Positions 62,220-63,691 of a DNA stretch of 64,000 nt are shown here, piece after piece (the stretch's first letter is position 1; every line of letters begins with the position of its first letter). The position numbers were made by a program, and so were the translations under genes. The stretch is from Candidatus Woesearchaeota archaeon (lineage in GTDB: Archaea; Nanobdellota; Nanobdellia; Woesearchaeales; GW2011-AR4), in the NCBI GenBank assembly GCA_018303625.1, contig JAGVXV010000016.1, positions 7,317 to 71,316 on the forward strand, written 5' to 3'. The notes under the pieces were generated by a model that did not search any database, was not told the origin of the DNA, and worked only from the letters and a program-made list of their open reading frames with translations.

Positions 62220-63691
62220 ATTCCCGTTGATCCTGCGGGAGGTTGCTGCTATTGGGATCCGATTAAGCCATGCAAGTCTTCTCGCAAGAGAGGCAAACTG
62301 CTCAGTAACACGTCGATAATCTGCCCTTAGGTCTGGAATAACCTCGGGAAACTGAGGATAATGCCGGATAGGGAAATCCAACTGGAAGGTGGATTTCTTC
62401 AAACGCAAGGCCTAAGGATGAGTCGGCGGCGGATTAGGTTGTTGGTGAGGTAACGGCCCACCAAGCCGAAGATCCGTAGGGGCCTTGAGAGAGGTAGCCC
62501 CGAGAAGGGCACTGAGATACTGGCCCTAGCCCCACGGGGTGCAGCAGGCGCGAAACCTTTACAATGCACGCAAGTGTGATAAGGGGATCCCAAGTGCTTT
62601 GCTTTTAGCAAGGCTTTTGCTATACGTAAATAGTATAGCGAATAAGTGGTGGGCAATACCTGTGCCAGCCGCCGCGGTAACCCAGGAGCCACAAGTGGCA
62701 ACCACCTTTATTGGGCCTAAAGCGTCCGTAGCCGGAAATCGTTGGGCTTAACCTAACGGCATGCAGAAAAGACTGTTAAACTAGGGATTGGGAGGAGTCA
62801 GAGGTATTTCTGGGGGAGCGGTAAAATGCTATAATCCCAGAAGGACCCCCTGTGGCGAAGGCGTCTGACTAGAACGAATCCGACGGTGAGGGACGAAAGC
62901 TAGGGGAGCAATCCGGATTAGATATTGGGATTTTCGAATTGAAGATAAGAGTTTCACTGATTGCAATAATACTACTGGTGAAATTCAAAGAATACCAAAA
63001 ATTCCGACTAATTACCCGAGTAGTCCTGGCTGTAAACGCTGCGAGCTAGGTGTTGCACATTCTTCGGGAATGTGCAGTGTCGTAGTGAAGATGTTAAGCT
63101 CGCCGCCTGGGAAGTATGGTCGCAAGACTGAAACTTAAAGGAATTGGCGGGGGAGCACTACAAGGGGTGCGGCGTGCGGTTTAATCTAATTCAACGCCGA
63201 GAGGTAGTGCATGGCCGTCGTCAGCTCGTGCCGTAAGGTGTCCTGTTAAGTCAGGCAACGAGCGAGACCTGCACCTACAATTGCTAATAGGTTCTTTGAA
63301 CGACTGAGCACATTGTAGGAACTGCCTCTGAAAAGAGGAGGAAGGCGCAGGCTACGGTAGGTCTGTATGCTCCGAATCTTCTGGGCTACACGCGCGCAAC
63401 AATGGCAGAGATAATGGGATGCAACTCCGAAAGGAGAAGCCAATCCTCCAAACTCTGTCTTGGTCCAAATCGAGGATTGCAACTCATCCTCGTGACGTTG
63501 GAATCCCTAGTAATCGGACTTTATCATAGTCCGGTGAATATGTCCCTGCTCCTTGCACACACCGCCCGTCAAACCACCCGAGCAGGGTTTAGATGAGGCT
63601 TAATTTTTAATTAAGTCAAATCTAAGCTCAGCGAGGAGGGTTAAGTCGTCACAAGGTAGCCGTAGGGGAACCTGCGGCTGGATCACCTCCT
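62220..63691 (+). rRNA. 16S rRNA (with ~80-nt insertion at 62935-63014)
   Basis: 5' ATTCCCGTTGATCCTGCGGGAGG; GTGCCAGCCGCCGCGGTAA; GGAATTGGCGGGGGAGCAC; GCATGGCCGTCGTCAGCTCGTG; CACACCGCCCGTC; 3' GGATCACCTCCT. Confidence 0.9.
62935..63014 (+). other. Insertion (putative rRNA intron or lineage-specific expansion) splitting the universal GGATTAGATA|CCCGAGTAGTCC site
   Basis: 80 AT-rich nt between GATA and CCC(G)AGTAGTCC; its 3' end (CTAAT) can pair with the 5' exon end (ATTAG), a BHB-like arrangement. Confidence 0.5.

Follow-up and report, generated by a model that had tools for sequence, protein, structure and literature searches.

Introns bounded by bulge-helix-bulge (BHB) motifs have long been known in archaeal 16S ribosomal RNA (rRNA) genes. 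Thirteen 16S loci have been catalogued (374, 548, 722, 781, 803, 901, 908, 919, 978, 1093, 1205, 1213 and 1391; PMC4496867), and the same source summarizes the splicing pathway of archaeal rRNA BHB introns. Published statements on DPANN archaea hold that ARMAN-2 and Mia14 have 16S introns, and intron-containing 16S genes are said to hamper primer-based detection; in the literature that we searched there were only such general statements and no description of a DPANN 16S BHB intron at Escherichia coli position 793/794. Here we analyze a stretch of 64,000 nucleotides (nt) from Candidatus Woesearchaeota archaeon (assembly GCA_018303625.1, contig JAGVXV010000016.1, positions 7,317 to 71,316), hereafter the window, whose 16S rRNA gene is interrupted at exactly that bond by 90 nt without an open reading frame (ORF). 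We document the insertion, its reproducibility, the motif at its ends, the conservation and covariation of that motif, and both intron-less and endonuclease-encoding alleles of the site. It is a known kind of intron at an uncatalogued, evidently common site.

An insertion in the 790 loop of the 16S rRNA gene

The gene and its predicted parts are as follows.

62220–63691, + strand: archaeal 16S rRNA gene, host of the intron (Rfam RF01959, 1276.8 bits, model positions 1–1478)
62220–62923, + strand: exon 1 of 16S
62924–63013, + strand: predicted ORF-less BHB mini-intron, 90 nt, at E. coli 793/794 (91 nt against one model position)
63014–63691, + strand: exon 2 of 16S

The RF01959 match places the insertion within an archaeal stable-RNA gene, and in the archaeal 16S alignment, proposed with the original prediction as a check, 91 nt stand against one model position, between GGAUUAGAUA and CCGAG in the 790 loop. 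By direct reading, the last base of GGATTAGATA is 62924 and the first of CCCGAG is 63015, which leaves 90 nt of extra DNA. Because A/T bases are shared at both ends, the boundary can slide by up to 2 nt (62923–63012, 62924–63013 or 62925–63014), and among these three we chose 62924–63013 on the BHB geometry described below. The insertion point then has GGAUUAGAU before it and ACCCGAG after it, at the bond E. coli 793/794 in the apical loop of helix 24. An 80-nt insertion at 62935–63014 had originally been predicted; the RF01959 alignment bears out the insertion but not its length or start, as it is 90 nt long and begins about 10 nt earlier. The accompanying statement that it holds no ORF was right: nothing is encoded within 62924–63013, the only ORFs there being TTG-start ones of at most 45 amino acids (aa) that cross the exon borders, and the window intron has no LAGLIDADG or other endonuclease ORF. 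An Rfam search assigned it to no family; the best hit, at E = 0.93, fell far short of the gathering scores.

Other assemblies of the same organism were found through exact matches to the EF-2 and ScpA-like proteins of the window, which occurred in 44 and 63 collection blocks, respectively, with records named ANAN16-1_SAMN...; these matches trace the organism's proteins to aquifer metagenomes. Two assemblies reached the 16S gene, L002 (ERZ27254763 k141_66871) and L003 (ERZ27254759 k141_417717). The 90-nt insert is 100% identical in the window, L002 and L003, three independent assemblies that are not alike in the rest of the gene, L002 diverging in the V5 hairpin (columns 877–925 of our alignment A1) and L003 from about column 1160 on. 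The insertion is therefore reproducible and is not an assembly join, the chimeric origin that the original prediction had named as a possible undoing.

It had also stated that the 16S is recognizable at all landmarks. The gene is indeed an archaeal 16S, but its landmarks are not intact: 18 nt (GTTTGATAAATTTTCTGT) are missing at about 62734/62735, and a second gap, of 62 nt at about 63195/63196, takes in h33, the 5′ strand of h32 and a part of h31; both segments are present in L002 and L003. The 18-nt helix also occurs, as a variant, in a fourth assembly (L007), and one more contig breaks off close to it. We think that both gaps are probably assembly defects in strain-variable helices; as written, the window copy could not make a functional 16S. 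As a side observation, the assemblies of this population are mosaics, identical over most of 16S including the intron and divergent in blocks, which indicates co-existing strains or species, or chimeric rRNA assemblies.

A bulge-helix-bulge motif spans both junctions

The elements of the motif, with the minimum free energy (MFE) and centroid structures taken from ViennaRNA folds of 62900–63035, are these.

62914–62916, + strand: outer helix h, 5′ strand CGG, the native top of 16S helix 24 (pairs with 63016–63018)
62918–62921, + strand: central 4-bp helix H, exon strand UUAG (pairs with intron CUAA at 63008–63011)
62922–62924, + strand: bulge 1, A U / A, with the predicted 5′ splice site at 62923/62924 (3-nt bulge in MFE and centroid)
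62925–62934, + strand: inner helix h′, 5′ strand UUGGGAUUUU (10 bp with 62998–63007 in MFE and centroid)
62949–62986, + strand: interior hairpin (62949–62958 pairs with 62977–62986 in the MFE)
62998–63007, + strand: inner helix h′, 3′ strand AAAAUUCCGA
63008–63011, + strand: central helix H, intron strand CUAA (from sequence and comparison)
63012–63014, + strand: bulge 2, U U / A, with the predicted 3′ splice site at 63013/63014 (from sequence and the energy of the canonical conformer)
63016–63018, + strand: outer helix h, 3′ strand CCG (from the junction alignment)

Two 3-nt bulges thus lie on opposite strands with a 4-bp helix between them, spanning both junctions. On the inside this core is flanked by the 10 bp of h′, two G·U pairs included, and on the outside by the 3 bp of h, a slightly relaxed length for such a helix; the mismatch A62917·C63015 adjoins the outer helix. 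The splicing endonuclease cuts after the second nucleotide of each bulge, the rule by which we placed the splice sites, and cuts so placed join GAUUAGAU to ACCCGAG, which is exactly the universal 790-loop sequence.

Folding of the junction, likewise proposed with the original prediction, gave the motif: the inner helix, the AUA bulge and the exon/intron helix are all present in both the MFE and the centroid structures, and the canonical hBHBh′ conformer has −24.3 kcal/mol, against −26.7 kcal/mol for the MFE. The pairing of ATTAG with CTAAT that had been pointed out is real as complementarity (62917–62921 with 63008–63012), but the central pairing is the 4 bp of UUAG/CUAA rather than 5.

Conservation and covariation at the same bond

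We scanned a set of one genome per species (GTDB set) for the pattern GGAGCNNNNNGGATTAGATA followed by a non-C base and obtained at least 119 loci. Among them, at least 36 further archaeal 16S genes have an insert at exactly the same bond, with inserts of 23–746 nt. Their hosts, among the matches listed, belong to the Woesearchaeota, Nanoarchaeota, Aenigmatarchaeota, Iainarchaeota and Micrarchaeota, with one Promethearchaeota metagenome-assembled genome (MAG) and several unclassified archaea. Insert lengths by host are:

Woesearchaeota and Nanoarchaeota MAGs: 89–217 nt, plus 663–746-nt forms
Aenigmatarchaeota: 54–72 nt
Micrarchaeota: 38 and 84 nt
Iainarchaeum: 745 nt
Promethearchaeota MAG (one): 30 nt

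The window and these 36 genes could be aligned without gaps across the junctions (37 sequences, alignment A2), and the pairing and covariation statistics of this section are from that alignment. The BHB core, that is the 4-bp helix and the two bulges, is present in 37 of 37 homologues. Every intron ends in CUAA, CUGA or CUAG plus two bases, followed by ACCC (37/37), and the CUGA and CUAG variants of the H strand retain G·U pairs, so that helix H is paired in 100% of cells. The inner helix varies in sequence, and the strand after the 5′ bulge remains complementary to the bases just before CUAA across the 37 sequences, with such pairs as UCGAG/CUCGA, UCAAGAA/UUCUUGA, UCGUCAC/GUGACGA and GACCCUUUUUAC/GUAAAAAGGGUC beside the UUGGGAUUUU/AAAAUUCCGA of the window. 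Paired cells make up 88.9% against 67.4% in shuffles (0 of 500 shuffles reach the observed value), the covariation score is 0.507 against 0.130 (0 of 500), and pairing falls to 52% or less once the partners are slid by 1–3 columns. Changes on both sides occur at all eight of the inner-helix pairs counted. In the outer helix, columns 3–5 are paired with 51–53 in 37/37, column pair 3/53 covarying as CG, GC, UA and AU, and the adjoining A·C mismatch is invariant. Compensatory change thus maintains the motif among the homologues.

Two side observations came from the same scan. Three loci labeled as uncultured Methanosarcinales (L030, L041, L049) have 16S genes 78–82% identical to the window 16S and a Woesearchaeota-type intron; these contigs are probably mis-binned DPANN sequence and not Methanosarcinales. 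In an uncultured archaeon (L067) and a Micrarchaeota MAG (L082) there are several mini-introns per 16S gene, the second lying close to E. coli 803, behind ACCCCGGTA or ACCCGAGT and 8–9 nt beyond the 793 intron; further mini-introns follow downstream, and L082 has an apparent LAGLIDADG-type ORF, judged by eye.

Endonuclease-encoding and intron-less alleles

At least four of the inserts at this bond are long versions (L095, L077, L016 and L094; 663–746 nt), each with an ORF of 206–240 aa. The two of these ORFs that we scanned against Pfam, those of L095 and L016, match LAGLIDADG_3 (E = 1.7e–11 and 2.9e–11). The bond is therefore a homing site, at which short ORF-less and long ORF-bearing introns coexist. 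The long DPANN introns have the same bond as the window intron, the same helix H (UUAG with CUAA or CUAG) and the same bulges; they differ in carrying an ORF, and judged by eye alone they have no obvious sequence similarity to it. Most likely the window intron, which lacks an ORF, is related to a mobile LAGLIDADG intron that would home to this conserved site, or is a passenger of one, and has been inherited or has spread within DPANN lineages.

Empty versions of the site were sought by scanning the metagenome collection for the spliced junction with the flanks of this lineage, which also answers the proposal that metagenomic 16S sequences of related lineages be checked. At least seven intron-less relatives, 82–90% identical to the window, were found, and all seven among the matches listed have the exact predicted junction, so that cleavage at the predicted sites would restore the sequence that relatives possess. 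One (JACCDV01) is an ordinary DNA metagenome contig, four are from OBEP01 and two from OBAT01. The OBEP01 set comprises full-length small-subunit rRNA sequences derived from RNA (Karst et al., PMC12203549). The two OBAT01 sequences are similar to these in length and ends.

Proposed splicing and alternative explanations

We put the probability at about 0.9 that the insertion is a 90-nt BHB intron, excised by EndA, with the exons joined by RtcB and the intron released as a circle. In the precursor, the last six intron bases and the first base of exon 2 (CUAA-UU/A) would fold back on the end of exon 1 (UUAG-AU/A), forming four base pairs with three bulged nt on either strand; the 10-bp intron helix would close this core on its inner side, and the native top of helix 24 on its outer side. 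The tRNA-splicing endonuclease (EndA) would cut both bulges at symmetric positions, and an RtcB-type ligase would then join the exons into the universal GGAUUAGAUACCC loop and circularize the intron. The predicted spliced junction runs from ...CCGGAUUAGAU to ACCCGAGUAGUCC, and the predicted intron-circle junction from ...CGACUAAUU to AUUGGGAUUU. A BHB-spliced mini-intron is what had originally been proposed, and the motif, the exactly restored junction, the covariation in 37 genes and the intron-less relatives all argue for it; we infer the cleavage, the ligation and the enzymes from sequence.

Several points weigh against this reading. Excision and ligation in this organism are deduced from DNA, and the RNA-derived intron-less sequences are too distant (<97%) from intron-bearing genomes to prove splicing, the best RNA-derived versus intron-bearing match being 88.5% (L128 versus L030) among the matches listed. 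Neither EndA nor RtcB was matched among the approximately 50 window ORFs scanned with Pfam, and their presence rests on general knowledge of Archaea. As to structure, the unconstrained MFE adds two pairs to the exon/intron helix and so lacks the second 3-nt bulge, the outer helix is short (3 bp after the invariant A·C mismatch), and the fold of the region is no more stable than shuffles (z = −0.40); the fold energy being unremarkable, the case rests on geometry and comparison rather than on energy. Finally, GATA and a following non-C base were prescribed by the search pattern, and the 5′ bulge sequence of the comparative set is therefore partly selected, whereas the 3′ junction and the helices are not.

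It could be supposed that the 90 nt are never removed and persist in mature 16S as an extension of the helix 24 loop, in which case the mature RNA would read GGATTAGATA, a non-C base and CTAANNACCC. Unusual insertions are indeed known from DPANN and Asgard rRNAs, the insert forms a self-contained stem when folded, and its removal is deduced from sequence comparison. Such retention is nevertheless very unlikely: the 790 loop, which sits at the subunit interface and the P site, is invariant, nothing would oblige an expansion segment to maintain a BHB with covariation across phyla, inserts at the same bond range (among the matches listed) from 23 to 746 nt with some encoding a homing endonuclease, and close relatives lack the insert with an exact junction. 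Equally unlikely is an insert that is cut out but whose flanks are never rejoined, leaving 16S as two fragments held together in the ribosome in the manner of bacterial intervening sequences. Cleavage and ligation are separate steps of which the DNA reveals only the cleavage signal, and fragmented rRNAs exist in other organisms; against this, the characterized archaeal rRNA BHB introns are ligated, RtcB is to our knowledge universal in Archaea, and a break would remove the continuous, functionally critical 790 loop.

That an assembly error or chimeric join put foreign AT-rich DNA into the 16S gene seems next to impossible to us. Metagenome rRNA genes are notoriously misassembled, and the window copy itself has two probable defects (the missing 18 and 62 nt), but the insert is the same in three independent assemblies from different samples and assemblers, and homologous inserts occupy the same bond in at least 36 other genomes. 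We give hardly any credence, too, to a self-splicing group I or group II intron or its degenerate remnant. Group I introns occur in DPANN rRNA genes (PMC6125680), and bacteria of the candidate phyla radiation (CPR) have insertions of 980–1148 nt in this same loop; a ribozyme core nevertheless needs far more than 90 nt, the intron matches no family of either group at gathering score or at E ≤10, and its ends form a BHB.

Interior structure of Woesearchaeota-type introns

The homology of Woesearchaeota-type introns at this site extends into their interior. The hairpin loop of the window intron ends in ACUACU (62971–62976), complementary to AGUAGU of exon 2 (63019–63024; 799–804), and the loop motif [A]CUAC[U] is found at the homologous place in L093, L123, L031, L076, L078, L103, L035, L098, L022 and L058, the last of which shows a double compensatory change (loop ACUAAC opposite exon GUUAGU). 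The introns of a subfamily (L093, L035, L098, L030, L049, L022 and L058) further contain an internal mimic of the end of exon 1, NNUUAGUC, of pattern NNTTAGTC, which can pair perfectly with the 3′ end of the same intron, GACTAANN, and covaries with it at NN, the two bulge bases; the mimic is often preceded by a local hairpin built from the 5′ strand of the inner helix. The window intron has the loop motif and lacks the mimic. Given that the 18 introns compared are relatives, the counts can only be suggestive: five or more complementary nt between loop and exon 2 in 13 of the 18 against 4.7 expected, and the mimic in 7 of the 18 against 0.55 expected.

The loop and exon 2 may form an intron-exon tertiary pairing, a hypothesis that we draw from complementarity, and a mimic conformer would be expected to compete with the BHB. 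We judge it rather unlikely that introns at this site use tertiary pairing with the exon or alternative conformers in a structured, cis-acting role. Were this so, the weak outer helix might be extended for the endonuclease, or splicing might be timed relative to the folding of helix 24 in small-subunit assembly, and the role would be of a kind not described for archaeal BHB introns.

A C/D box small RNA within the intron was considered and rejected: no D box is visible by eye near the 3′ strand of h′, and the Rfam hits, matches to small nucleolar RNAs at E = 0.93–4.8 and 12–19 bits against gathering scores of 40–50, are at chance level.

Genomic context

Among the matches listed, the 16S sequences nearest to the window exons are those of Woesearchaeota MAGs, at 82–84% identity (84% for L093), which points to a Woesearchaeota-like DPANN archaeon as host. 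The window has a G+C content of about 39% and encodes archaeal information-processing genes; those around 16S are archaeal housekeeping genes (aEF-2, EF-1alpha, SRP54, Gins51 and eIF2alpha). Rfam also found three tRNA genes:

59798–59886: tRNA Gly-GCC, with an insert of about 17 nt
60115–60216: tRNA Ile-UAU, with an insert of about 27 nt
63771–63887: tRNA Ala-UGC, in the 16S-23S spacer, with one insert of about 17 nt in the anticodon loop and another of about 28 nt in the T-loop

All three are interrupted, by four introns in total, one of them in a T-loop; the organism therefore depends on BHB splicing, non-canonical positions included, and these introns imply that the splicing machinery exists in it. 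ARAGORN reported no tRNAs in the window, because all three carry introns.

In the AT-rich 16S flanks, duplexfold and cofold gave no clear motif for a BHB processing stem. The 23S gene of assembly L002 has no large insertion (2910 nt against 2987 model positions). Directly downstream of this 23S, outside the window, lies a 132-aa gene (L002:1952–2350, − strand) matching PF05635 (23S_rRNA_IVP). Members of this family are usually encoded within bacterial 23S intervening sequences; that of L002 is free-standing and adjoins an archaeal rRNA operon. Between the tRNA genes and 16S, ORF 60281–61333 (+ strand) is well conserved, with a 403-aa gene in L002–L007, and has no Pfam match; other window ORFs without a Pfam match are 6600–7499, 8857–9726, 19696–21156 and 42265–44237.

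Consequences for amplicon surveys

The effect foreseen on primers 785F and 806R is upheld by reading the sequence: the intron would split the target of both, and with it that of the pair 515F/806R. With genomic DNA as template, 806R would have mismatches at four of the six bases adjoining its 3′ end (CTAATT for TTAGAT). Where the primers lie on either side of the site, the products would exceed their expected length by 23 to 746 nt. Intron-bearing lineages would therefore be under-counted in amplicon surveys or filtered out of them; DPANN are known to be under-detected, and our reading of the sequence offers one concrete mechanism for this. As a kind of intron the finding is ordinary, and it draws its value from where such introns are distributed and from what they do to 785F/806R priming.

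Comparison with known systems

The closest described systems are the 16S introns of Thermoproteales, Desulfurococcales and Aigarchaeota (Jay & Inskeep 2015, PMC4496867). These too have a BHB at the junction and sit in a conserved loop or bulge, and they likewise come in short ORF-less and long LAGLIDADG forms, are sporadically distributed and interrupt ‘universal’ primer sites. Their loci 781 and 803 lie in the same helix 24, but the bond 793/794 is absent from that catalogue, to which our results add a recurrent site. Their hosts are hyperthermophilic TACK archaea, whereas those described here are mesophilic, low-GC DPANN archaea of groundwater and sediment; BHB rRNA introns, best documented so far in hyperthermophilic Thermoproteales, are thus common in mesophilic DPANN as well, and this one homing site provides a natural set for studying the coexistence of ORF-less and endonuclease-encoding introns.

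Archaeal tRNA introns share the geometry (3-nt bulges, a 4-bp helix and symmetric cuts) and, presumably, the enzymes. Here the host RNA is instead an rRNA, and the outer helix is a native 3-bp rRNA stem beside an A·C mismatch rather than an anticodon stem.

Insertions of 980–1148 nt in CPR (Patescibacteria) loci L059, L085, L109 and L112 occupy the same GGAUUAGAUA loop (GGATTAGATA/AATCC...) and are presumably group I-like CPR rRNA insertions; LAGLIDADG-type endonucleases have been described in such insertions (PMC11270868). They differ from the archaeal introns in being bacterial, self-splicing or removed by unknown means, in lacking BHB ends (GATA/AATCC...) and in using a different bond, while their consequences for primers are the same. 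With archaeal and CPR insertions alike in the 790 loop, this loop is therefore an insertion hot spot in both domains.

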